Below, one piece after another: positions 405 to 44,024 of a stretch of DNA of 47,650 nucleotides. The position numbers and the translations under genes are program-made. Within the stretch, counting starts at the first letter, position 1; each line of letters opens with the position of its first letter. The notes under the pieces are model-generated. The model had not been told where the DNA came from, did no database searches, and saw only the letters and a list, made by a program, of their open reading frames with translations. Origin of the DNA: a virus (lineage: Duplodnaviria; Heunggongvirae; Uroviricota; Caudoviricetes); IMG/VR virus record IMGVR_UViG_2541047798_000009; one strand, written 5' to 3'.

Positions 405-448
405 GTCCCATACATGCCCCATAGATGCCCCATAGATGCCCCATAGGC
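405..448. repeat. Four tandem copies of an 11-bp unit (GCCCCATAGAT, two perfect, two degenerate)
   Basis: Direct reading: gtcccatacat / gccccatagat / gccccatagat / gccccataggc immediately upstream of the dinI-like promoter; the period is about one helical turn. Confidence 0.8.
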
Positions 449-4351: not shown

Positions 4352-7300
4352 TCAGCTAATCGTGATGCCTGCAGTGGCTTTCTTCATCACAACAACCAGC
4401 AAATCGCTGATACTTGCTGTGGGATACCAGCCATTTACCCACCATGCTGATACAGAAAACTCCAGCGTCATGTCGCCGCGACCAGCAGGCATATCAATAA
4501 CACCACTGTAAACCAGCGTATTATCCATCGCGGTACGGTTATAAATTTCAGCACCGTTTTTCTTCACTATCAGGCGGCATGACGAATAAGTATCGCTGTT
4601 CTCCCGCTCATGTCTGGCACCGCTGAAAGCCACCGCCGGAATAACAATCTGCCGGTTAAACGGCTGATCGTCATAAACCCTGACGGTAATGGTTCCTGAT
4701 GGCCAACGCTTCGGTGCACGGGAGTCACGAGGGAAAGCCTTACCCACTGTTTTAACGAGATCGCCTTCAATCTGGTTTGCAGACAGTTTCCCTCTGATGA
4801 CACAGTTCTCGTTAATGGTGACATTATTGAGCGTGCCGGTATTCGCCGTGATGGCTCCACTGATATCCGCATTGCGGGCTGCCAGCCTGCCATCCGGCGT
4901 CAGGGAAAACGTAGGAGGATTGCCGGATGACGTGATGCTCACCGCAAACAGTCGCTTCAGGAACACGTCGTTCATGAACAGCTGATTCCCCTGCGCCACA
5001 AACAGCGGCGTGGTGTTGCCGTTCTCCGGGGTAATCATCGCAATGCGATCGGCCTGCAGCAGAATGTTACTCAGGGTCTGACCATCAACATCCTCAATCC
5101 CCGCGCCAATCCCGGCCACATAGGGAATACCGTTTTTTGTTTTCTGCACCTTCAGCATATACATGGCATTCAGCTCATTGCGCGTGTCTGACTGAACCCG
5201 CTGGATTTGCTGTATGGTCACGGCCTGGTCACCCAGCTTTTTATCCGTGGTCGAGGTAATTTCACTCCCTTTTTTATCCACGTACTGGCGGACCTGTGCT
5301 ATCTGTCGGGCGTTTTCTGACTGCCCCTGGCTGACAGTCTGTGAGATTTCACTGCTCACCCGGTCCACTTTCTGGCTCACCTGCGCGATGGCCAGTGTCT
5401 GATCCTCATTCTTTTTCGCAACCAGCTGCGTGAGGCTGTTTTCCGCCTTCCCGATTTTCCGGGTCACTTCTGCGATATCCGTGTCCATCCGCTGACGGAT
5501 ATCTTCTTCCAGTTGCGTGACCTCCGTACGCAGCGCTGAAGCATCAATGCGCTCTTTCAGTGCCTGGCCCAGAAGCGTCTCATCTATCAGCCCCCGGAAA
5601 ATTTCCAGATACCCTTCACCATCATTGCTGGGCTGCCCGCTGGCTTCCACAAAAGCAGATTTTCCCACCAGGTTGACGCTTCGCACGTAAAACCAGAAAT
5701 CCGTCCCCGGCTTAATCCGGCTCCCCTGGACAGTCCACTGACTGCCGGTCCCCAGATAACGGGCAGATTTTTCCACCTGTGCTGTGTTCGTGATGCGTTT
5801 TTCTGAGAACCAGAATTCAAACTGTACCGTCGGGTCATACACCGCAAGACGCGGGACCGCCGTTATCTGAAAATACCCCGGCGTCAGCTCAATGGTGGCG
5901 GGTTTTGCAGGTGCGTTAATCCGGAAGGTGGTGGTGGCAGGTTCACCCTGCTGGCCATAGCTGTTTATCGCCCGCACCGTCAGGGTGTATTCCCCGAGCG
6001 GCAGGCCGCTGAAACGGTGCTCCGTGTCTGCGGTGATGGCAGTGGTCACCAGTCTGGCATCCGTTCCCTTACCACTGGTCAGGCGCAGACTGAAGCGCAC
6101 GCCCTTCACCACCCGCGGCGTGTCCCATTTCGCCTGCGCCAGATACTGGCCATCAGCTGCGCTCACCTCCACCGTCAGGTGCTGCACTGCCGGTGGGATA
6201 ACGCTGTTCAGGGTGCCTGACTGCGGCTCAAAGCGGGCACCGTTATCCACGATGGCTTCTTTTTCCGGTACGTGCTGCACCGCCGTGATGGCAAAGGTGC
6301 CGTCCGTGTTTTCCCGGATGGAGACACAGCGGAACAGGCGACGGCGCAGTGACGGCAGGGAGAGTCCCCACACCCCGTATGTCTCCACACCATCAGGCAG
6401 GGTACTGACCTGTATCCGGTCCGGCGCGGGGTGTGCGGTGATGTCCACACTCACCGGCTTACCGCTGCCGTTAATCAGGTTCACCGCTGATGTACCTGTC
6501 TCCGGCAGGGTAACCTCACGGTCCAGCGTCAGGGTGCGGGTGGCAGCATCAATGGACAGGACACGTCCGCCGGTCAGGGTCCCGGCATAGTCATTATCAC
6601 AGATTTCAATAATGTCACCGGGTGTGTGACGCAGCCCCTGTGACCCGAGCGTGAAATCCACCGTCTGCGTTTCCAGCAGTTCGGTCTTTATCACCCACAG
6701 CCCGGCACGGTGGGCCTGACCGCGGCTGGTACAGCCGAACGCGTCCATCTTCAGCAGGTTGCGTCCGTAGCGCAGTATGGCTTCCGGGTCTTCCACCAGT
6801 TCCGTGGAGGTCTGCCAGCCGTTCTGCGGGTCGGTGTAATTCACCTCCACCGCCGTGTGCCGGTCCTTCAGGGCACTGAAGCTGTAGCGGAAACCCACGC
6901 CGTTATCATCCACCACCACATCGCTGCTGGTGTACGGCCACACCACATCCGACGGGCGGTCCTGAACAAACGTCAGCGTCTGACCGTTCCATACCGGCAT
7001 ACAGCGCATCGCAGAGCAGAAATCACTGAGAACGTCCCACGCCTTACGCTGTTGTGCCAGGTACGCATTAAAGGTCATCCGCGGCTCGGTCCCCCCGAAA
7101 CCATCCGGGACCGTCTGGTCGCAGTACTGCCCGATGGCATACAGCGCCCACTTGTCCACATCCGCCACCCCCAGACGTTTTCCCATGCCGTAGCGCGGGT
7201 GAGTCAGCATGTCCCACAGGCACCAGGCCGGGTTGTTGCTGTATGCCGGTTTCAGACTGCCGTCCCAGATACCACTGTACGTGCGTTTTTCCGGGTCATA

Positions 7301-26022: not shown

Positions 26023-26358
26023 TTCACCACCAACGGATTGCCCAGATCAGAACAGCAATGGCTATAATACGAATGGCAAAGGCTGCCGCTCTTGTTAAAT
26101 CCAGACAGGCTGGCGTCTCCACTTCAATGCCTTTCATAATGGACAACCTCAGAAAGAATCTTTTATACTTCCTCACAGGGAAAGCACCTCCCTCACCATA
26201 ATTTCTCCCTTGCCTTACTCAAGGTCAGAAAACACAAAACCCCGCTTGCAGCCAACAAACGGGGTTTTTACTTTTATTCACTTAGTTTTTGTCAGTTCGC
26301 AGGATTTCGTGTTATCCGCCCGCGTGGTCATTCCTCATTTTTCAGCAAAATATTCTGC

Positions 26359-26892
26359 TTATCTGTCGATACCCCAGCACGCCAGCGCGCTCTCCTGGTC
26401 ACGACGGGATACCTGACCGTAACAGTTATTTGAGCGAATACGGCAGTCTCTGCCACCGTCCTTAATCCACCAGCGAATCGCTTCGCAGGCACCTTTTCGA
26501 TCACCTGCATTAATTCGTCTGTAAAACGTCGACGGGAAACACTTACCGGGACCAATGTTGTACGGACAGAATGACGCGATCCCCGCTTTCTGGGGTTCGG
26601 TCAGCGGCACTCTGATGTTTTTCTCCACCCACGCCAGCGCTTTATCACGCTCAATGGCGTTAACCTGGTCGCATTTTTCCTTCGACAACTTCATGCCCGG
26701 AACGACAGGTTTGCCATCCACCATGATGGCACCACGGCAGATGGTCCAGATACCTGCACCATCACGGTATGCCGTGGTGTGGTTGCCTTCCTTTTCATCC
26801 AGAAACTGGTCGAGAATGTCAGGCGCAGGCGCACCAGCGGCAATCAGCGCCAGAACGGCAGCCGACAGGCCGTATTTGATTTTGGTGTTCAT
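26359..26892 (-). CDS. R: SAR-type endolysin (phage lysozyme, 177 aa)
   Basis: Gly/Ala-rich weakly hydrophobic N-terminus (SAR-like) and lysozyme core resembling phage 21 R. Confidence 0.85.
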   Translation of the reverse strand: MNTKIKYGLSAAVLALIAAGAPAPDILDQFLDEKEGNHTTAYRDGAGIWTICRGAIMVDGKPVVPGMKLSKEKCDQVNAIERDKALAWVEKNIRVPLTEPQKAGIASFCPYNIGPGKCFPSTFYRRINAGDRKGACEAIRWWIKDGGRDCRIRSNNCYGQVSRRDQESALACWGIDR

Positions 26893-31827: not shown

Positions 31828-32105
31828 TTATCCATCTCCATATTAACAAGAACAATTATCTATAAAATATAGTAAATATGCGGGATCCGGGAGGACTTGT
31901 AACTATCATCTCCGGATCAGCATGTAGTTTTTATTTTTCCGGATGATATATGCCGCAATAATACCTCTGCATACAGATGCCTGCAAATATCTGCGAAGCA
32001 TCCGGCGAGAATAAACAAGGAAGTCTGAGGCTATCTTATATGATAGCCTGTTGCTCAAAAGACAATGATTCACTCATCAGAACCAACAACGCATAATGCA
32101 GATAA

Positions 32106-32182
32106 TGGACCGCCATCGAGGACTCGAACCCCGCGCAGCCAGCTTCGAAGGCTGGCGCTCTATCCCGATGAGCTAATGGCGG
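32106..32182 (-). tRNA. tRNA-Arg (anticodon UCG by hand folding)
   Basis: Hand-folded cloverleaf: 7-bp acceptor, D-arm GCTC/GAGC, anticodon stem CCAGC/GCTGG with loop CTTCGAA, T-arm CGGGG-TTCGAGT-CCTCG, CCA encoded. Confidence 0.7.
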
Positions 32183-32191
32183 TATGTGATA

Positions 32192-32267
32192 TGGTGGCCC
32201 TTGCTGGATTTGAACCAGCGACCTGGCGATTATGAGTCGCTCGCTCTCACCACTGAGCTAAAGGGCC
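32192..32267 (-). tRNA. tRNA-Ile2 (anticodon CAU, ileX/ileZ-like)
   Basis: Sequence GGCCCTTTAGCTCAGTGGTGAGAGCGAGCGACTCATAATCGCCAGGTCGCTGGTTCAAATCCAGCAAGGGCCACCA is very close to E. coli ileX as recalled; anticodon loop CTCATAA. Confidence 0.8.
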
Positions 32268-32307
32268 GGGCGCAGGATAATAACGGTACGTAACTAATTC
32301 TGCAATA

Positions 32308-33096: not shown

Positions 33097-34179
33097 ATGA
33101 AAAAATTAACAGTGGCAATTTCTGCTGTAGCTGCATCAGTACTGATGGCGATGTCTGCTCAGGCAGCTGAAATTTATAATAAAGACAGTAACAAGCTGGA
33201 TCTATACGGGAAAGTTAATGCCAAGCACTACTTCTCCTCTAATGATGCAGATGATGGTGATACTACTTATGCTCGTCTTGGCTTCAAAGGTGAAACCCAA
33301 ATCAACGATCAACTGACTGGTTTCGGTCAGTGGGAATATGACTTCAAAGGCAACCGTGCTGAATCTCAAGGTTCTTCCAAAGACAAAACCCGTCTTGCAT
33401 TTGCAGGCCTGAAATTTGGTGATTACGGCTCAATCGATTACGGTCGTAACTACGGTGTAGCATACGACATCGGTGCGTGGACTGACGTTCTGCCAGAATT
33501 CGGTGGTGATACCTGGACCCAGACAGATGTGTTCATGACTGGCCGCACTACTGGTGTTGCAACTTATCGTAACAACGACTTCTTTGGTCTGGTCGATGGC
33601 CTGAACTTTGCTGCTCAGTATCAGGGTAAAAATGACCGCACTGACGTAACTGAAGCCAATGGTGATGGTTTCGGTTTCTCCACTACTTATGAGTATGAAG
33701 GATTCGGCGTGGGTGCAACCTATGCTAAATCAGATCGCACTGACGGTCAGGTCGCCTATGGTAAGAGCAAATTCAATGCCTCCGGCAAAAATGCGGAAGT
33801 ATGGGCTGCAGGCCTGAAATATGATGCGAACAATATCTATCTGGCTACCACATATTCTGAAACTCAGAATATGACCGTTTTTGGTAATAACCATATTGCA
33901 AACAAAGCACAAAACTTTGAAGCAGTAGCACAATATCAGTTTGACTTCGGTCTGCGCCCATCTGTTGCTTACCTTCAGTCAAAAGGTAAAGACCTTGGTG
34001 TTCATGGTGACCGAGACTTAGTCAAGTATGTCGATGTCGGTGCTACTTACTACTTTAATAAAAACATGTCCACTTTTGTTGATTACAAAATCAACTTAAT
34101 TGACGATAGTAAGTTTACCAAAACAGCTGGTATTGATACCGACGACATCGTCGCTGTAGGTCTGGTTTATCAGTTCTAA
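33097..34179 (+). CDS. Outer-membrane porin (OmpC/OmpF/NmpC/Lc family, 361 aa)
   Basis: Signal peptide [23 protein letters not shown] then [23 protein letters not shown]... and C-terminal ...[11 protein letters not shown]-rich promoter region upstream; antisense to late transcription as nmpC is in DLP12. Confidence 0.9.
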
Positions 34180-34367
34180 TCTGACTTACGAAAAAGATAT
34201 GTTGCGGGAGGCTTTGCCTCCCCAACATATAAGTGGAGCCCTCAAGCCACTTCCTTTAGAAGCACTACCTTGCTTCTTACTATATAAACCTTCTGTTATA
34301 TATTACCCTTTATTTTGGGGGCGTTTCCACGCCCCATTTTTAATAACTTTTAGTAAATAATTGCATA

Positions 34368-34760
34368 TCAATTAGAATTATTAGCAACGATATCCATATC
34401 TAACCGGATATCTAATGCCATTAACATCCCTTCAATTATGCCCTCAGCCTTCTGTAACCTTTTCCCGATATAACCATCCGAGCAGCAATGCTTACTTGCC
34501 AGTGACATGAATGTCATACCACATACATAATAATCTACTAATAAATCGTGTAAATCGCTGTTGTTCTTTTTCAGACGGGCCATGCACCCGCAAATGATCA
34601 TCGCGTCATCGTCACAACATTGCGGGCGAGATTTTACTTTTGAAGGAATTAATCCCTTAAAACCGGCAGCAATGGACGACCAGGTCACATCCTCATGATT
34701 ATTTGCCGCCCATGCGCCCCAGCGTTCAAGAACCATCTGAATATCACGCATTATTCGCAC
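34368..34760 (-). CDS. Late-gene antiterminator Q (DLP12 QuuD-like, 130 aa, GTG start)
   Basis: [60 protein letters not shown]... matches QuuD as recalled. Confidence 0.88.
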
Positions 34761-35608
34761 TCACCAACCAGATTGAGAATGACCGCTGCACCGTCGTCTT
34801 CCATGCATTCACCCTTACCACTTGCCAGAAACCAGCGGCACGCCTCCACGGCTTCAGCGCGTGTCACCGGTTTGATGGTTGCCAGCAATTTTTCAAGGTA
34901 GCGCTCCCGGTCATATACCGATTCGTGATGCTCAGAGTAACCAAACTCATCGCCCTGTTCTTTAGTTGCAGTGTGGCGAACACTGTAGAGCCAGTCCCAG
35001 TAAACGAACTCGCGAACAACATCAGACAGCGTATAAGGCTCAGGCAGCACATCGCGATATCCATCAACAAATGCCCGACGCTGTTCATCAATTTCGGTCA
35101 TGCGGCTGCCGCCAATGCTTCCGGCTTTTTTCTCTGCCGCAGTCCAGCCCCAGAGATGATCGTTGATAAATTTCTGGGAAGACCTGATGACCCGCTCTGC
35201 TTCCACATCTTCGAGCGCTGCTTCATAGCTACCAAACATAGCCCTGACTGATGCCGCTTTTTTGATGTTCTCCCGGGCGTTCCTGATAACCTGCGCAGGG
35301 TTATCCATGCCGATGATGCCGAACGCAACCTGGAAAGGTTCGTAACCATTCGCCAGCAGATAACGCGAATAGCGTTCCTGAGCCTCTTTTGGGGAAATTT
35401 TAATTTTCACCAGCGCAGCCTCAGCAGCATCCAGATGTGCGGGTTCGTTCAGACGGATAACCTCCAGCACCCAAAGATAAGCATCAGTCTGCTTATGCCC
35501 GGTGATTCTCCGTTGCTCTGGCAGGGGCTTGATGTTTGCGAGGGCGGAGCTGTACGCTGCCGTCGGGATGGTGAATAGTGCTTTATGTTCGTTATTATCA
35601 GTACGCAT
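34751..35608 (-). CDS. Hypothetical protein (285 aa) in the nin-equivalent region upstream of Q
   Basis: Long ORF coupled to neighbouring genes; no domain recognised. Confidence 0.5.
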
Positions 35609-36576
35609 TACGCAACCGCCTTTTTCTTATGGAAAACCAGCTCTCGAACCTGATCACCGTTCATGAGCATATTGTTGAAATCATCGTGATCCGGCCAGTA
35701 CACGCTCACGCGCTGCAGGTCATTCTTTGCCATCAGATTGGCATGAGCACATTCGCAAGCCGCAGCCAGCCCGGTGGCGCTGTTCTCGTCACGGTCGGCA
35801 AAAATAATCAGGTGCAGAACACCAGCTGGTACGCGAAACTTTTTCATAAAGCCGCTGTTAATGGTTGCCCAGGTGTTCACGTTATAAATCTGGTGCGCTG
35901 ACAGCGCTGTTTCGATGCCTTCGGCGATACCCAGAGTGCTGGCGACAGGAAACATGCGGATAGCTACAGAACGAGCGTGATCCAAATAGTTATCTTCCTG
36001 CAGGGATTTGAGGCGCTTTGCACTGCTACCGATATCTGCTTTTTTATCACCATCAAGCAGAGTCTGGTGCAGATAGCACAACTCCCCTTTATCGTCCGTA
36101 GCAAGTGAATAAAGAGACTGGAACACACTCCCGTTGTGTCTCTGCCTGGCATTGAACCGGATCGCCTCAGCAGGAAGACTGAATATTCCACGAGAATTAA
36201 GATACGCTGCGCCGGATGTACCACGCAGTGCCTCCAGTTTTGAAAACTTGCTCAATACCCGTTTGCGTAAGCTGGTGGCGCTGCTGGTTACCGGGATTTT
36301 AACCCGTTGGTAATCATTACCGATCAGGCGGTCTATTTCGGTACAAATCTCGTTAAATGGCTTCGCCTGTGTCAGGGTGACAAGTTTCATACCATCGCCA
36401 CTACCACATACACAGATCCACGTTCCTGCACCGTCGCGGTCGTCAATTCGGAACTTGCCACGTGCACCGCATACCGGGCATTCACCCTTGAAGTGATTTT
36501 TTCCGGTTATCGGCGGCAGACCGAAGTGCTCTAATATTTCAGGCCAGCGGCCTTTCGCTGCATCTGCTGTTTTCAT
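35608..36576 (-). CDS. DNA primase (zinc-ribbon plus Toprim domain, 322 aa)
   Basis: CPVCGARGKFRIDDRDGAGTWICVCG zinc ribbon; Toprim motifs GIAEGIETALS and LIIFADRDENSATG. Confidence 0.8.
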   Translation of the reverse strand: MKTADAAKGRWPEILEHFGLPPITGKNHFKGECPVCGARGKFRIDDRDGAGTWICVCGSGDGMKLVTLTQAKPFNEICTEIDRLIGNDYQRVKIPVTSSATSLRKRVLSKFSKLEALRGTSGAAYLNSRGIFSLPAEAIRFNARQRHNGSVFQSLYSLATDDKGELCYLHQTLLDGDKKADIGSSAKRLKSLQEDNYLDHARSVAIRMFPVASTLGIAEGIETALSAHQIYNVNTWATINSGFMKKFRVPAGVLHLIIFADRDENSATGLAAACECAHANLMAKNDLQRVSVYWPDHDDFNNMLMNGDQVRELVFHKKKAVA

Positions 36577-36577
36577 C

Positions 36578-38236
36578 TTACTGACTCAGACTGTTTATAT
36601 TTTTCTGGAGTTGGTGCTTTGCCTGCATGATGCGCCAGGCCTCACTGCCTGCCGGTATCTCACGTCGTTCATCACGTTCCTGAGATAAATCAATCGTTGT
36701 TTGTGCGTTTTCAGTGACCTTCTGAACCCGCTGGTGGCCTTTGGCAAACCGGATCAGTTTGTGTCTGATGTAGTTATTTACCTCAGGGGTAATTTCCATC
36801 GGAAAGTTACTCAGTCCGTCAGGCCACTCACCGAACTTTTCCCGGAAAGTGTGAGCACACCATCCGTCACTGACTGGACGCCCCAGCGAAGCACGCTGGC
36901 GCTGATAAAATTTGATCTGACTCCACCAGGACTGTTTCTCTGCCTTCGTCGACTGATGCTGATTTTTACCCAGCTTATTAAGTTTGCGGCTAGTGTCAGT
37001 ATCAACGTCTTCACCTCGCAGCGGCTTGTGTCCACATTTCGGGCAAACATAGACGCCTGCTGGCTTCATGTAGTGGCATTGAGGGCATTCATGTGGCAGT
37101 TTTTCGGCCCGTTCCTCAACTGCCCGGCGCGCGCTTTCCTCCATGCCGTCAGACTTACCGGGAAGCTCGTCGTACTCGATTGAATCCGGATAACCCAAAC
37201 GGTGCACGGTGCCGCTGTGATCGAAGATAAGGCAGGACTCTTTACCCGGTGCGGTGCGCAGCCCACGCCCGAGAGCCTGCAACCAGCGAATTTCGCTTTT
37301 TGTTGGCCTGGCGTAGATGATGCAACGAACGTCACTATCAAAGCCGGCCACCAGAACGCCCACACTAACGATGATTTTCGTTGCACCGGTTTCAAAGCGG
37401 TGAATGATGGTCTGGCGCTCATCTACCGGAGTGTCGGCGGTCATTACCTCAGCGTTAACACCCGCCAGGTTAAACTGGATTGTCAGATAATTGGCGTGAG
37501 CTACGTTGACGCAGAAAGCGATGGTAGGTAAATCCCGACCATTCTCCAGCCAGTTCTGTACGATGTCGCCCACCAGCGTAGAGCCGCACATGATTTCAGC
37601 CAGCTGTGTTTCGTTGTAATCGCGGCCGTACTCAAGCGAAGATGTGGTTTTAACACCTTTCAGATCCGGCTTAGTTGGCGCGTAAAATTCGTATTTACTC
37701 AGATCGCCACGCTGGATTAACTCGCCGATGGTGGTCGGCTTAATCAGTCGGTCATAGTATTTGCCCAGGAACGGAGAAAACGGAGTACCCGACAGGCCAA
37801 TCACCTTTACGCCTTTGCCGCGCAGACGTTCGATATCCTTCAGGATGCGTTTTTTACGCAGGTGCGCTTCGTCGATAATCAGCAGATCGATATTTTCAGG
37901 AAAAACACGACGAATAAGCGTGTCAGCGCTGGCAATCTGAATTTTCCGGTCCGGATCGTAGTTCGGGTGATCCGCCCAGATATAACCGATTTCATCTCCA
38001 GGTAAACCATACTGCACGAACCGATTAGCCGTCTGACCAATCAGGATGGTGTACGGAACACAGAACAGAACACGCATACCACGGCTGACAAAACCAGCAA
38101 CTATGAAGGCTGCCAGACCCGTTTTACCGCTACCTGTTGGCGAATACACCATGAAGGTGTCGTTTGCCTTCCAGTCACGGCGCAACATGTTTAACGCTCG
38201 TTCCTGTGCAAAATTCGGCGTGATCGTCAGCTCCAT
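36578..38236 (-). CDS. SF2 (DEAD/DEAH-box) DNA helicase with C-terminal zinc ribbon (552 aa)
   Basis: Walker A YSPTGSGKTG, DEAH box LLIIDEAH, SGTP motif, and CPQCHYMKPAGVYVCPKCGH. Confidence 0.85.
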   Translation of the reverse strand: MELTITPNFAQERALNMLRRDWKANDTFMVYSPTGSGKTGLAAFIVAGFVSRGMRVLFCVPYTILIGQTANRFVQYGLPGDEIGYIWADHPNYDPDRKIQIASADTLIRRVFPENIDLLIIDEAHLRKKRILKDIERLRGKGVKVIGLSGTPFSPFLGKYYDRLIKPTTIGELIQRGDLSKYEFYAPTKPDLKGVKTTSSLEYGRDYNETQLAEIMCGSTLVGDIVQNWLENGRDLPTIAFCVNVAHANYLTIQFNLAGVNAEVMTADTPVDERQTIIHRFETGATKIIVSVGVLVAGFDSDVRCIIYARPTKSEIRWLQALGRGLRTAPGKESCLIFDHSGTVHRLGYPDSIEYDELPGKSDGMEESARRAVEERAEKLPHECPQCHYMKPAGVYVCPKCGHKPLRGEDVDTDTSRKLNKLGKNQHQSTKAEKQSWWSQIKFYQRQRASLGRPVSDGWCAHTFREKFGEWPDGLSNFPMEITPEVNNYIRHKLIRFAKGHQRVQKVTENAQTTIDLSQERDERREIPAGSEAWRIMQAKHQLQKNINSLSQ

Positions 38237-38649
38237 TGTGCAGCTCCCGTGCTGATGAGATAATAATTTTGTGATGTGGTTTTCATGGATTCCCCCTCAC
38301 ATGGCTGGTGGCCTCCCCAAAGGCTGCCAGCCTCCCTTCTGATTCAGCTCCTCTGAAAAATCACTCTTCCAGGAAGAACCCTTTTCGTTTCTCAGCGCCT
38401 GAGCGCTTTGTACTACCTTGCTGATACGGGCGTTTTTTTAAATTGCGCCCTTAAGACAGTGATCTACTTAACCAATGGATCTCTCCTGTTGGAAAAGACC
38501 CTATTCCTGCCCCAACACCCAATCCCCCCTTACCCCCCTTACCCTCTTCCCCATAAAAACGTACTACTTCCCTAGTACACATGAGGAGTTGGGTCAGTTG
38601 GTTGCCAACCTGAACAGGCACCTTTAAGCCTGCTTCTGTTCGGGTACCT

Positions 38650-38958
38650 TTAAACCCGAAACAATGAGGAGCGCGATTGCGTTCCTGCCAGGGGCGGCTG
38701 AGTTGTATACCCCTGTAAAGCTCTGCCCTGATTTCTCACAAACAAGCGGAGCCTTGTGTTTGCTTCGTGCCTTGCTCTGTTCTCCTTGCGGAATGAAACA
38801 GGCTCAGCGTCAAAAGTGATTTCGTATACCTCCGCATATTTCAGGGCGACCTTCCGTCTCAGTGACGGAGGCAGCCCCTGTAACTGCTGCTGAATCCACT
38901 CTTCGTCTGCCTGGCAGTACCTAGCTGGCATTTCAACCCTGACTAAATCCTGTTGCAT
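38650..38958 (-). CDS. Hypothetical protein (102 aa); C-terminal 20 aa run into the C-rich intergenic region and may not be native
   Basis: ORF from the track; the first ~80 aa look protein-like, the tail is low-complexity. Confidence 0.35.
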   Translation of the reverse strand: MQQDLVRVEMPARYCQADEEWIQQQLQGLPPSLRRKVALKYAEVYEITFDAEPVSFRKENRARHEANTRLRLFVRNQGRALQGYTTQPPLAGTQSRSSLFRV

Positions 38959-38961
38959 GGC

Positions 38962-39081
38962 TTACTCTTCCCGCTTCGCTATGAGGTTATAAACCCCGCT
39001 GATCGGGTCATACCATATGCTGCGTGGCAGCAGCTTCTGGAAGTAGCGCGGATCTGGCATTACGGTTGACTGTTGTGACAT
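38962..39081 (-). CDS. Small ORF (39 aa) coupled to the cro-like gene
   Basis: ATG sits 4 nt after an AGGTG that overlaps the cro-like stop; the start lies inside a 12-bp perfect palindrome GTGACATGTCAC. Confidence 0.3.
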   Translation of the reverse strand: MSQQSTVMPDPRYFQKLLPRSIWYDPISGVYNLIAKREE

Positions 39082-39088
39082 GTCACAC

Positions 39089-39289
39089 CTAACTATTTGT
39101 TTTCCGTAATGGAGAAAAAATGAGGCTCTCTTTAGATAATTTGAGGGTTGGTGAAACTTTAGATACCGCTTCCTCAATTCTTTCAGCCATTGCAACTGAG
39201 GGGCGCCTAAAACCCAGAGCCATCTGGTTCAGGTATGCAACGCTAGTCCCAGATAACTGTGCCAGCCGCCTCCATTCATCCGCGCTCAT
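39089..39289 (-). CDS. Cro-like HTH regulator (about 66 aa; alternative starts at 39322 or 39334)
   Basis: MSADEWRRLAQLSGTSVAYLNQMALGFRRPSVAMAERIEEA is a Cro/YdaS-type HTH; divergent from the repressor gene across operator palindromes. Confidence 0.6.
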   Translation of the reverse strand: MSADEWRRLAQLSGTSVAYLNQMALGFRRPSVAMAERIEEAVSKVSPTLKLSKESLIFSPLRKTNS

Positions 39290-39344
39290 GACTCCTCTGA
39301 TTGAGAGCAATACACTGGACATAAAAAACCCCATACTGTATTGG

Positions 39345-39416
39345 TTATTAGCAACGTGCTAACATTAGCACATGAGATCACAATACAGCAATACGCTGTA
39401 AAGCATTTAGCTAACA
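39345..39416. promoter_or_regulatory. O_R-like operator region with TTAGCA/TGCTAA half-sites
   Basis: 15-bp perfect palindrome TTAGCAacgTGCTAA (39348-39362), a TTAGCA half-site (39365-39370) and palindrome TTAGCTAA (39407-39414) between the divergent regulators. Confidence 0.55.
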
Positions 39417-39427
39417 ATGAGACAAGC

Positions 39428-39883
39428 ATGGAAATCAAAGATATTCGCTTAAAAAATCTACAGACGGTAATCCAACGCAGCGGCTTAACCCAGACAGATC
39501 TGGCGTTAAAATGTGAGATATCACCCTCACTTATAAGCCAAATAATGACTAAGCGCAGAAATATGGGAACTGCTCTCGCTAGAAAACTCGAGGGGCGACT
39601 GAGCCTATCAGAAGGATGGTTTGACATCCCCCACTCATTGCTGGATTCCCCATGGCATCTAGCTAAAATGAGGGAAAAGACTGGTGAGACCACTATTGAT
39701 GAACAGCAACTAACTAAAAGAGAGACTCGACTTATTGAGTTATTCAGACAAATGCCTGAAAGCGAAAAAGACAGGATAATCAGTGAGTTATCTGAAAAGA
39801 AACGTAATTTTGACAAACTACTTGATGAGCTAATGGCTGTTAAAGCATCAAGAATGCCGATCGACAAAGACGAAAATGAATAA
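39428..39883 (+). CDS. CI-like repressor with N-terminal HTH and no LexA-type S24 peptidase domain (151 aa)
   Basis: HTH LKNLQTVIQRSGLTQTDLALKCEISPSLISQIMTKRRNMGTALARKLE; C-terminal half is coiled-coil-like with no Ala-Gly/Ser-Lys autocleavage motifs; the track start 39341 is a TTG inside the operators. Confidence 0.6.
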   Translation: MEIKDIRLKNLQTVIQRSGLTQTDLALKCEISPSLISQIMTKRRNMGTALARKLEGRLSLSEGWFDIPHSLLDSPWHLAKMREKTGETTIDEQQLTKRETRLIELFRQMPESEKDRIISELSEKKRNFDKLLDELMAVKASRMPIDKDENE

Positions 39884-39917
39884 TAAATACAACGCACTAT
39901 AAAAAAAACAGCAAATA

Positions 39918-39989
39918 TTAGCATTTTGCTATTGTCAAGAATAACGCATAGCGCTACATTCACCTCAGCAAGTAAAAACAAGTGAGGTG
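39918..39989 (+). promoter_or_regulatory. P_L-like promoter with operator palindrome TAGCAtttTGCTA and an RBS-sequestering hairpin
   Basis: Palindrome at 39919-39931 matching the O_R motif; -35 TTGTCA (39932-39937), -10 TACATT (39955-39960); inverted repeat CACCTCA (39961-39967) / TGAGGTG (39983-39989) whose right arm contains the GAGGTG Shine-Dalgarno. Confidence 0.45.
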
Positions 39990-39995
39990 AATGTA

Positions 39996-40439
39996 ATGTT
40001 AAATGATAAACATGACTCTTATTCCGTAAACTCTCTGTTGATTTGTGCTCAAGCGGCACTATTAGGCGGTACCGCTTCAAACCATGACGTCATCAACCTC
40101 TTAGATGTTGCACAAGACATCATCTCTTCAACTATGAATTCCTTTACAGATAGTAGCGCTCCCGGCGCTAATGTTGATTTATTTACCAAAGAAGTTAGCG
40201 CTAGTAATTCCCCAGCATTATCTTTCGGTCAACGTATTCTCCAAGCGCGTAAATCAGCAAGTCTTCAACAACATCATATTGCCAGCGGTGCTGGAGTGAC
40301 TGTTCAGGCTGTTTCGTTATGGGAAAATGACTCAGCAATTCCTACTTGCGACAAAATTATCCCATTGGCAAATCTTCTTGGCTGCGATCCAATGTGGTTA
40401 CTGACTGGTGCTTATAAACAAAATCAGGAGGAAGCATAA
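39996..40439 (+). CDS. Hypothetical protein with C-terminal XRE-type HTH (147 aa) at the N-gene position
   Basis: C-terminal SFGQRILQARKSASLQQHHIASGAGVTVQAVSLWENDSAIPTCDKIIPLANLLGCDPMWLL is an HTH_XRE pattern; ATG 6 nt after GAGGTG. Confidence 0.55.
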   Translation: MLNDKHDSYSVNSLLICAQAALLGGTASNHDVINLLDVAQDIISSTMNSFTDSSAPGANVDLFTKEVSASNSPALSFGQRILQARKSASLQQHHIASGAGVTVQAVSLWENDSAIPTCDKIIPLANLLGCDPMWLLTGAYKQNQEEA

Positions 40440-40440
40440 G

Positions 40441-40632
40441 ATGAAAATGTTCAAAGGCCTCACCAACGAACCGGAAACAGCTTTTCATCACATTGCCGTA
40501 CTGCTTGAAGCGGGGTTAATCATTTCGGCTTCCGGTGATGAAGAATGTGATGAACTTTCGGATGATATCTTTTTACTGGCACAACAATACGCCAGAAGCG
40601 CATGCGATGCATTTAAGGAGCAAAGAACATGA
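40441..40632 (+). CDS. Hypothetical small acidic protein (63 aa)
   Basis: ATG 2 nt after the previous stop, AGGAGG upstream. Confidence 0.45.
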   Translation: MKMFKGLTNEPETAFHHIAVLLEAGLIISASGDEECDELSDDIFLLAQQYARSACDAFKEQRT

Positions 40633-43274: not shown

Positions 43275-44024
43275 ATGAATATTGTAACCATCAACAACAA
43301 ACAGTTTCCGGTAATCGAATATCGCGGTCAGCGTGTTGTGACATTTGCAATAATTGATGACGTCCACCAGCGCCCGGAAGGTACCGCCCGTGCTGCGTTT
43401 AACCGCAACCGTTCTCACTTTATCGAAGGGGTGGATTTTCTTGAAATGACTGCGGACGTAATACGTACGGAGTCACTTTCTGATGCCTTTGCCGCGCGAA
43501 CTGCCAAAGGGATCATTCTTTTCGAGTCTGGTTACCTGATGTTGACGAAGCCTTTTAACGATACTCTTGCATGGCAGGTTCAGCGCGAACTGGTTAACAG
43601 CTATTTCCGAACTCACGCGCCGCTGACGGAAATGGAGATGATCGCTGCAATGGCCGCCGATGCCGTTCGCCAGCAGAAGCGCCTGAGTCATGTTGAAGAG
43701 AAGATCGAAACAGTCACCAAAGCTGTGGAGAACATCAAACGCGGCACAATGCGCACCGGATATGTCGGTTACCGCCAGGTGGTAGCCAAAAGCGGAATGA
43801 GTGACGCCAAGTGCCGGAATCTGGTCAACGCCTACCACATCCCTACCGACACGCACGAATTTATGACTCCGGACGGTCTGTTGTCTCGCAGGGCTATCGT
43901 CGAGCTTGAGACATTTATGGCGGCATTCCACCAAATGATGTCAGAGGCTGAACCACGCGGCACACGCTGGTATCACCCGAAGATGGGGCTTTTCCAGGTA
44001 ATCGGATGGGAGGATAAAGCATGA
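43275..44024 (+). CDS. ORF6N-domain protein (putative antirepressor, 249 aa)
   Basis: N-terminal FPVIEYRGQRVVTFAIIDDVHQRPEGTARAAFNRNRSHFIEGVDF fits the ORF6N/AntA-type domain found in phage antirepressors. Confidence 0.55.
   Translation: MNIVTINNKQFPVIEYRGQRVVTFAIIDDVHQRPEGTARAAFNRNRSHFIEGVDFLEMTADVIRTESLSDAFAARTAKGIILFESGYLMLTKPFNDTLAWQVQRELVNSYFRTHAPLTEMEMIAAMAADAVRQQKRLSHVEEKIETVTKAVENIKRGTMRTGYVGYRQVVAKSGMSDAKCRNLVNAYHIPTDTHEFMTPDGLLSRRAIVELETFMAAFHQMMSEAEPRGTRWYHPKMGLFQVIGWEDKA

Follow-up and report, generated by a model that had tools for sequence, protein, structure and literature searches.

The window analysed here is a stretch of 47,650 nucleotides held as IMG/VR record IMGVR_UViG_2541047798_000009, and our subject is a pair of genes at positions 35608 to 38236, encoding a helicase and a primase, together with the leader in front of them and a small open reading frame (ORF) further upstream. 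The window represents almost the whole of a lambdoid prophage of Escherichia coli VR50, extending from the host gene btsS at its left end to the integrase at its right end; a query comprising positions 34300-39400 was 100% identical to this strain (NZ_CP011134.1). In the PGAP annotation of the prophage the lysis, structural and early-right genes all lie on the minus strand. The early-right genes are arranged in the order cro, small ORF, helicase, primase and Q, which places the pair directly after cI/cro, where lambda has cII, O and P. A previous reading of the letters alone, hereafter the original prediction, had located the two genes after cro, and they are indeed found there, since the product of the 81-amino-acid ORF at 39089-39334 (minus strand) is about 49% identical to Cro of phage H-19B (E=1e-12). 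This cro-like helix-turn-helix (HTH) gene, which PGAP left unannotated and which has a weak HTH_3 match, is the first gene of the early-right operon and diverges from a repressor-side HTH gene at 39428-39883 (plus strand).

The longer gene of the pair (36578-38236, minus strand) encodes a DEAH-box helicase of superfamily 2 (SF2), of the monomer type and with 552 amino acids. Pfam, PHROGs and the sequence motifs agree on this assignment, and together with the adjacent primase ORF it fills exactly the coordinates given by the original prediction, which had named a DEAH-box helicase with a zinc ribbon. Matches were obtained to the Pfam models ResIII (2.4e-15), DEAD (9.7e-10) and Helicase_C (1.9e-10) and to phrog_16 "DNA helicase" (1e-104); the Walker A motif reads SPTGSGKTG and motif II, with the DEAH box, IIDEAHL. 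A C4 zinc ribbon (CPQC-x10-CPKC) is located at amino acids 384-401, so that the overall layout comprises a RecA1 plus RecA2 core, the zinc ribbon, a helical C-terminal domain (amino acids ~430-510) and a variable tail. The closest relative of solved structure is RadD, both by sequence (3.4e-20) and by fold (rank 1); the enzyme is not a RadD equivalog, as it reaches 94.6 bits with a cut-off of 720 in NCBIfam NF053632. The AlphaFold2 model has a mean confidence (pLDDT) of 49 overall and is good in the C-terminal domain at amino acids 430-510 (pLDDT 81-89), and a fold search of the PDB with this model again returned RadD, XPB and generic SF2 folds, at a template modelling (TM) score of about 0.2.

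The shorter gene (35608-36576, minus strand) encodes a zinc-ribbon/Toprim primase of 322 amino acids with the N-terminal type of the P4 alpha protein, likewise as postulated. Pfam matches to Zn_Ribbon_Prim (PF08273, 3.7e-14), DUF7146 (3.3e-13) and Toprim_3 (PF13362, 1.8e-14) are in accordance with membership in phrog_510 "DNA primase" (2e-130), and the catalytic Toprim residues (EGxxTA and DxD) are present in the translation as AEGIETAL and DRDE. The domain searches proposed earlier thereby confirm both enzymes. A tblastn comparison with P4 alpha gave 26% identity over amino acids 3-263 (E=6e-14). Neither a fused superfamily 3 (SF3) helicase nor an origin-binding domain was found in the primase, which stops at 322 amino acids.

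Between the small ORF and the helicase gene lies a leader of 410 bp (38237-38649), which is untranslated and conserved across relatives; our comparisons took in about 100 related loci, of which 84, 87 or 97 were used depending on the measure. The RNA fold of the leader beats that of shuffled sequences with z=-4.3. At its beginning two hairpins (hp1, 38639-38660, and hp2, 38613-38634, both on the minus strand), which were found as direct repeat D1 and through the RNA fold, present an identical 8-nt loop UUAAAGGU on different stems, and hp1 overlaps the stop codon of the small ORF. In 43 distinct instances of the hairpins from related loci 93% of the cells were paired, whereas shuffled sequences reached 74.6% and slid controls 30-47%; compensatory changes were observed in five of the seven pairs. 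The 28 cells of G:U type compared with four of A:C type indicate that the hairpins form on the sense strand, i.e., in the rightward transcript. They look like a protein-binding RNA motif of the early-right transcript, possibly of the boxB/nut kind; an Rfam scan of 34000-40500 on both strands gave no match at E values up to 1.

The two hairpins are followed by a terminator-like hairpin (38553-38580, minus strand), composed of GUGUACUA, GGGAAG and UAGUACGU with a subsequent UUUUAU, which was read from the sequence and is part of the minimum free energy fold. It is missed by a consensus terminator scan, its stem having fewer than three G-C pairs. The element is kept in Fostie, ENT39118 and YP3, is reduced to a palindrome without U-tract in Fels-1 and is duplicated in an Erwinia locus (L107); its GTACTAG/TAGTAC motif recurs at ~38410-38427. 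Directly adjacent is a G-rich tract on the sense strand (38499-38552, minus strand), GGGGAAGAGGGTAAGGGGGGTAAGGGGGGATTGGGTGTTGGGGCAGGAATAGGG, with the core G3-7-TAA-G3-7. This is the C-rich region of the original prediction as seen from the plus strand, and it is real: with 33 G it contains the most G-rich 60 nt on the minus strand of the window (mean 17.1, standard deviation 4.3) and represents one of only two canonical G-quadruplex motifs in it. The other one, a threefold tandem of GGGGCATCTAT at 407-442 (minus strand), is situated inside the btsS coding sequence. Of 97 loci, 68 have a sense-strand G3+TAAG3+ motif upstream of the helicase gene, and none has it on the antisense strand; the motif is present in TL-2011c and retained down to Gilliamella relatives whose helicases are about 57-60% identical. 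At least seven IMG/VR contigs (L017, L042, L051, L057, L069, L073 and L081) start inside the GGTAAGGGGGG repeat of the leader and one locus (L053:1-40) has unrelated sequence immediately upstream of the repeat; this place is either a recombination junction or a point where sequencing or assembly broke off.

A conserved box, CCATTGGTTAAGTAGATCACTGT, follows the G-tract at a distance of about 63-68 nt (38456-38478, minus strand); it has the core GGTTARGTAG and two flanking GATC sites and is shared by the window, Fels-1, TL-2011c, Fostie, YP3, ENT39118 and a Klebsiella phage. The core was found in 89 of the 97 loci and its spacing from the G-tract is constant; the 30-nt segment just upstream, at 38470-38499, which contains TTTTCCAACAG together with the first part of the box, shows a nucleotide diversity (pi) of 0.10. 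Several small palindromes lie between the box and an upstream ORF of 19 amino acids (MKTTSQNYYLISTGAAQWS; 38227-38286, minus strand), which was read from the sequence and is preceded by the strong Shine-Dalgarno sequence GAGGGGGAA. The helicase gene itself has no obvious Shine-Dalgarno sequence. Since the stop codon of the upstream ORF overlaps the start codon of the helicase gene (ATGgagcTGA), both are likely to be translationally coupled. The start motif of the upstream ORF was present in 80 of 87 loci and its diversity is the lowest of the leader (pi 0.06-0.07); Klebsiella and Pantoea variants have no upstream ORF and carry a direct Shine-Dalgarno sequence instead. A Chi site (GCTGGTGG, 38304-38311, plus strand) lies inside a highly conserved GGCTGG...CCAGCC hairpin of the leader. 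A scan for sigma-70 promoters yielded no leader candidate, with counts below shuffle expectation.

The small ORF in front of the leader (38650-38958, minus strand) encodes a basic helical protein of 102 amino acids belonging to phrog_852 (4.8e-41), which is a conserved companion of the helicase-primase pair. Its conserved motif reads D..WI..QL...EP...RK.NRAR..ANTRLR.FV. Homologs precede the helicase gene in Fels-1, Fostie, YP3, the Klebsiella phage, Vibrio phage 1.233.B and TL-2011c, where the gene is unannotated, and in 19 of 20 loci that were found through the small protein alone, helicase and primase genes followed 330-570 nt downstream. The sole exception is a truncated Citrobacter prophage remnant (L098:1074-1400), in which the small ORF and half of hairpin 1 are kept and the deletion junction lies inside the hairpin; the sequences beyond this junction are presumably phage tail genes. 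An SF2 zinc-ribbon helicase also accompanies two distant members that were checked (L110 and L112). The family comprises about 280 clusters at 50% identity, nearly all of them standalone proteins of 66-120 amino acids. The AlphaFold2 model of three helices (pLDDT 57) is too weak to be used.

An initiator function of the small protein was considered and rejected: it belongs to no Pfam, NCBIfam or PADLOC family, and a profile search of 1.8 billion proteins returned small standalone homologs and no informative fusions. Likewise, its role as a ligand of the UUAAAGGU hairpins was given up as leading idea, as the arginine-rich helix (RK.NRAR..ANTRLR) is kept in the TL-2011c, Vibrio and Gilliamella relatives that have no such hairpins, and it is conserved even beside unrelated non-coding DNA. 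Because the basic helix is conserved in relatives with quite different leaders, the small protein is probably not site-specific, and most likely it would serve as an adaptor whose target is one of the two enzymes or a protein of the host replisome and not a specific nucleic-acid site.

The original prediction had stated that neither an O-like initiator nor a P-like helicase loader accompanies the two enzymes, and this was borne out by all searches. Nine ORFs of the early-right and repressor side gave no match to the O, P, DnaB or DnaC families in Pfam and PHROGs, and the same was true for eight of them in NCBIfam; for the early-right ORFs searched, no Pfam, PHROG or NCBIfam match to a Phage_rep_O-type initiator was obtained. 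The PGAP annotation lists no further replication gene in the whole prophage, including no NinB, and none of the upstream ORFs turned out to be a canonical initiator accompanied by iterons. In complete phage genomes of 37-42 kb with this module no other replication genes are annotated either; a complete 37-kb Klebsiella phage genome, for example, shows the arrangement cI, cro, small ORF, gap, helicase, Toprim primase and Q and no other replication gene. A search of plasmids for a minimal replicon returned no small replicons; the hits were entire phage genomes or large plasmids into which a prophage had integrated.

The module is by no means confined to strain VR50. The segment from helicase to Q shares 99.5% nucleotide identity with vB_EcoS-611R1 and 95% with phi467, both of them isolated phages, and 86% with Salmonella phage Fels-1. 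With megablast, 102 of 5426 complete E. coli genomes were found to carry this lineage. Helicase relatives covering at least 80% of the length occur in 157 phage records and primase relatives in 137; altogether the primase was found in 163 phage records, mostly of phages encoding Shiga toxin (Stx) 2a. The occurrence of the same module in isolated phages implies that it is viable.

Comparison of the leaders allowed a first view on the position of the origin. Among 84 unique loci the nucleotide diversity of the leader is pi=0.174, whereas third codon positions, taken as synonymous sites, reach 0.285 in the helicase gene, 0.42 in the primase gene and 0.36 in the small ORF; the leader is thus more conserved than the synonymous sites of its flanking genes. 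The most distant relatives with available context are Vibrio phage 1.233.B and a metagenomic locus (L112), both of which contain a RepL/HTH_36 "replication protein" between small ORF and helicase. The RepL gene is preceded by repeats, namely three copies of ACGACAGAACCTGTCGC in one relative and many GTGACA/TGTCAC copies within AT-rich DNA in the other, and both G-tract and box are absent. The cassette of G-tract and box has therefore apparently been swapped with a RepL/iteron cassette at the same position. An origin inside the helicase or primase gene was also looked for, and no island of reduced synonymous diversity was detected in either of them. Due to the positional equivalence with RepL and its iteron-like repeats, the purifying selection and the missing island within the genes, we propose the leader as the best origin candidate. 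This proposal is tentative and stays somewhat short of what we would call probable, because it is based on two contrasting loci.

Taken together, the genes most likely form a module for DNA replication of the Fels-1/Eru1 kind, with which this lambdoid prophage would replicate by means of a self-encoded SF2 helicase and P4-type primase in place of the O and P proteins of lambda. A possible course of events can be outlined as follows. The leader would contain the origin, and rightward transcription from pR would pass the two hairpins and a leaky terminator and enter the G-rich, C-poor tract and the box, where it might open or mark the DNA. The helicase, translated by coupling to the 19-amino-acid upstream ORF, would engage the opened leader and unwind it, the Toprim primase would prime the strands thus exposed, and synthesis would be left to DNA polymerase III of the host. 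The earlier suggestion that initiation depends on the C-rich region or on the small upstream ORFs is hence favored by the comparative data, i.e., the linkage in 19 of 20 loci, the conservation of the leader and the contrast to the RepL-type relatives, and is not proven by them. A more specific version, which we regard as speculative and clearly unlikely in its entirety, describes the leader as an initiator-less, transcription-dependent origin: the pR transcript would form a stable R-loop or G-quadruplex hybrid at G3-7-TAA-G3-7, for which the ColE1 RNA II primer and the mitochondrial conserved sequence block II (CSB II) would be analogs, this hybrid would be recognized by its structure, and not through a DNA sequence, by the RadD/PriA-like helicase together with the small protein, the primase would then start synthesis, and the whole cassette would be interchangeable with RepL plus iterons.

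Several observations weigh against these proposals. Neither a cluster of DnaA boxes nor an AT-rich unwinding element nor iterons in at least three copies were found in the leader, so that it does not have the look of a classical origin and could be conserved for regulatory reasons only. The sole perfect DnaA box, at 38213, is located inside conserved coding sequence, and no site for integration host factor was found in the leader. The contrast to RepL rests on just two loci, and the models of the helicase C-terminal domain and of the small protein are too poor for a fold-based assignment of function. Furthermore, we know of no RadD-like SF2 helicase acting as a processive replicative helicase, for which reason host DnaB may still be needed. 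A search of the literature turned up no functional study or replication assay of the module, and three publications dealing with phages that carry it (PMC8044961, PMC8951638 and PMC7556043) treat neither origin nor initiator.

Accordingly, readings in which the leader is not an origin have to be weighed. The two genes could encode replication enzymes and the leader could be regulatory only, providing antitermination or attenuation similar to nutR/tR1 plus translational coupling. The origin would then have to be sought elsewhere, for example within one of the two enzyme genes, as is the case for lambda O and N15 repA; alternatively, recombination or D- or R-loops loaded by the host primosome would initiate replication. 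The covarying hairpins with their RNA-like G:U pairs on the sense strand, the terminator-like hairpin and U-tract behind them and the coupling of the upstream ORF to the helicase start all fit this idea, as do the clean intrinsic terminator that the Vibrio relative carries after its small ORF, the lack of DnaA boxes, AT-rich element and iterons, and the location of the N15 origin inside repA. Nevertheless, neither gene has a conserved island of synonymous sites, the conservation of G-tract and box reaches much further than that of the hairpins and the upstream ORF, both of which are missing in the TL-2011c, Erwinia and Gilliamella relatives, and the RepL-type relatives possess iteron-like repeats at exactly the position of the leader, so that we judge a solely regulatory leader to be rather unlikely, though an alternative to be taken seriously. 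Still less probable, in our view, is that the G-tract is not related to an origin because its complement acts as a C-rich, G-poor loading site for Rho (rut), which would halt leftward antisense transcription into the immunity region, or because it is a recombination-prone mosaic junction. C-rich, G-poor RNA is a hallmark of rut sites, and the extreme strand asymmetry (33 G in 60 nt) would suit such a function, just as the contig starts within the tract, the unrelated sequence upstream of it in L053 and the break in hairpin 1 of L098 would suit a junction. A rut site requires a certain composition, however, and the G3-7-TAA-G3-7 core with its fixed spacing of 63-68 nt from E. coli to Gilliamella is more than that, and the contig breaks may reflect nothing but sequencing or assembly trouble in G-rich repeats.

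The replication function of the two enzymes can itself be questioned, as helicase and Toprim protein might be cargo for defense, counter-defense or repair, comparable to a RadD-like helicase combined with a Toprim nuclease. The closest solved structures of the helicase are indeed the repair helicase RadD and the restriction enzyme SauUSI, PADLOC returned partial SF2 matches to PbeA, DpdF and type IV restriction enzymes, and Toprim domains are also found in nucleases. Yet these PADLOC matches are confined to the generic C-terminal lobe of the helicase, and no PADLOC match at all was obtained for the primase, nor for the small protein and the 285-amino-acid protein described below; a defense function is unlikely for this reason. 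The Toprim protein moreover can be aligned with P4 alpha and contains a zinc ribbon (PF08273) that is specific to primases, and the genes fill the slot of O and P in whole phage genomes without alternative replication genes, which leaves the cargo idea with hardly any probability. The assignment as a replication module of the Fels-1/Eru1 kind is consequently the one that we prefer.

Some further features surround the module. The gap between cro and the 102-amino-acid ORF is filled by a short ORF (38962-39081, minus strand; ~39 amino acids from ATG, MSQQSTVMPDPRYFQ...), which matches no family and lies where the region is poorly conserved. Between primase and Q lies a gene for a protein of 285 amino acids (34751-35608, minus strand) belonging to phrog_6204 (9e-181), for which no Pfam or NCBIfam match was obtained; it is present in Fels-1, ENT39118 and 10 of 19 loci and absent from Fostie, YP3 and TL-2011c, and can be regarded as a facultative passenger. 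The downstream end of the early-right operon is formed by the Q-type late antiterminator gene (34368-34751, minus strand; Pfam Phage_antitermQ 7e-54), designated quuD by PGAP. Just downstream of Q an OmpC-family porin gene is encoded on the opposite strand (33098-34180, plus strand); a tRNA-Arg/Arg/Ile cluster and the truncated gene of a DNA methyltransferase come next (32017-32268 region), and this set constitutes lysogenic-conversion cargo of the nmpC/lc type. On the repressor side, the proteins encoded at 39428-39883 and 39996-40439 (both plus strand) matched only HTH models or DicA, and the S24 self-cleavage domain is absent from both of them according to Pfam and NCBIfam. Induction may therefore go through an antirepressor, for which an ORF6N-domain gene (43275-44024) and a KilA-N gene (26221-26742) are candidates.

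For the prophage of the window these results mainly amount to a correct annotation, and the by-products, namely the conserved small partner protein, the purifying selection on the leader and the apparent exchange of G-tract and box for RepL and iterons, are small testable leads rather than discoveries. The wider relevance arises from the Stx2a phages of highly virulent enterohemorrhagic E. coli, including TL-2011c and P13374, in which the same module, as Eru1, drives replication and hence the amplification of the toxin gene. Models derived from lambda, with O and P, DnaA and transcriptional activation, and inhibitors built on them do not transfer automatically to these phages, and it would be useful to know the origin and the host factors that the module needs.

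Contrary to what the original prediction had implied, the module type is already described, in the annotation of Fels-1, as Eru1 (PMC8044961) and in phage OS31 (PMC7556043). In Fels-1 the designations putative helicase and P4-like primase have been in use for a long time. Fels-1 shares 86% nucleotide identity with the window from the gene of the 285-amino-acid protein to part of the small ORF, and the gene order is the same, including the 285-amino-acid protein and the upstream ORF (STM0899.1n, STM0901.1n for the helicase, STM0901 for the primase and STM0902). It differs by a single hairpin instead of two, by the missing U-tract after the palindrome, by an inserted ORF of 122 amino acids (STM0899) and by a different Q. 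Eru1 is the replication unit of non-lambdoid Stx phages without O and P (Llarena et al., 2021, PMC8044961; also PMC8951638) and occurs, besides TL-2011c, in P13374, VT2phi_272 and Ss-VASD (PMC8044961). The helicase of the window is 66% identical to Eru1A of TL-2011c over 510 amino acids (YP_007001450) and the primase 58% identical to Eru1B, a Toprim protein of ~323 amino acids, over 320 amino acids (YP_007001451). Both modules occupy the same place after cI/cro, with a small upstream protein and a leader containing G-tract and GGTTAGGTAG box. In TL-2011c, however, an extra ORF of 125 amino acids with weak similarity to restriction endonucleases (REase) and NERD proteins is located between box and helicase, which the window does not have, the primase gene is followed by NinB/DUF1367 (eru1C) instead of the 285-amino-acid phrog_6204 protein, and the repressor is a cleavable CI of the LexA type (S24, Eru1r), whereas that of the window is DicA-like with an HTH and without S24. 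Conversely, the UUAAAGGU hairpins and the 19-amino-acid upstream ORF of the window are not found in TL-2011c. Extra ORFs of about 122-125 amino acids between box and helicase were seen in Fels-1, TL-2011c and the Gilliamella relatives (L002:7566-7934, L003:5164-5541 and L108/L109 ~5000-5290), at a place where the window has only the 19-amino-acid upstream ORF; the copies of Fels-1 and TL-2011c share 37% identity, and their matches, of REase_MTES_1575/NERD-like type, are weak. The same DEAD-helicase and Toprim module was reported for the Serratia lambdoid phage OS31 (PMC7556043).

More remote systems resemble the module in single aspects. A Toprim-type primase and an SF2 helicase were confirmed experimentally as a replicative pair in RepA of N15 and PY54 (PMC4889955). 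N15 RepA matches Toprim_3 and the UL9-type model Herpes_ori_bp and differs from the module in being a single fusion protein of 1324 amino acids. Since BLASTP detected no similarity between N15 RepA and the window proteins (best E values 1.3 for the helicase and 0.47 for the primase), it represents an analogy and not a member of the same group. RadD (YejH) has the SF2 core, the zinc-binding element and the C-terminal domain in the same layout; unlike RadD, the helicase of the window is phage-borne, lies in the slot of O and P and is always paired with the primase. In the P4 alpha protein, primase and SF3-type helicase are parts of one polypeptide, along with an origin-binding domain at the C terminus that reads TGTTCACC iterons. 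The primase of the window is homologous to the N-terminal zinc-ribbon/Toprim domain of alpha, with Zn_Ribbon_Prim and Toprim_3 in common, whereas the helicase is a separate SF2 protein and P4-type iterons are absent from the window. Vibrio phage 1.233.B and the metagenomic locus L112, finally, encode the small protein, the helicase (57-58% identity) and the primase in the same order as the window, and differ from it by the inserted RepL/HTH_36 protein and the AT-rich, iteron-like repeats that stand in place of G-tract and box.

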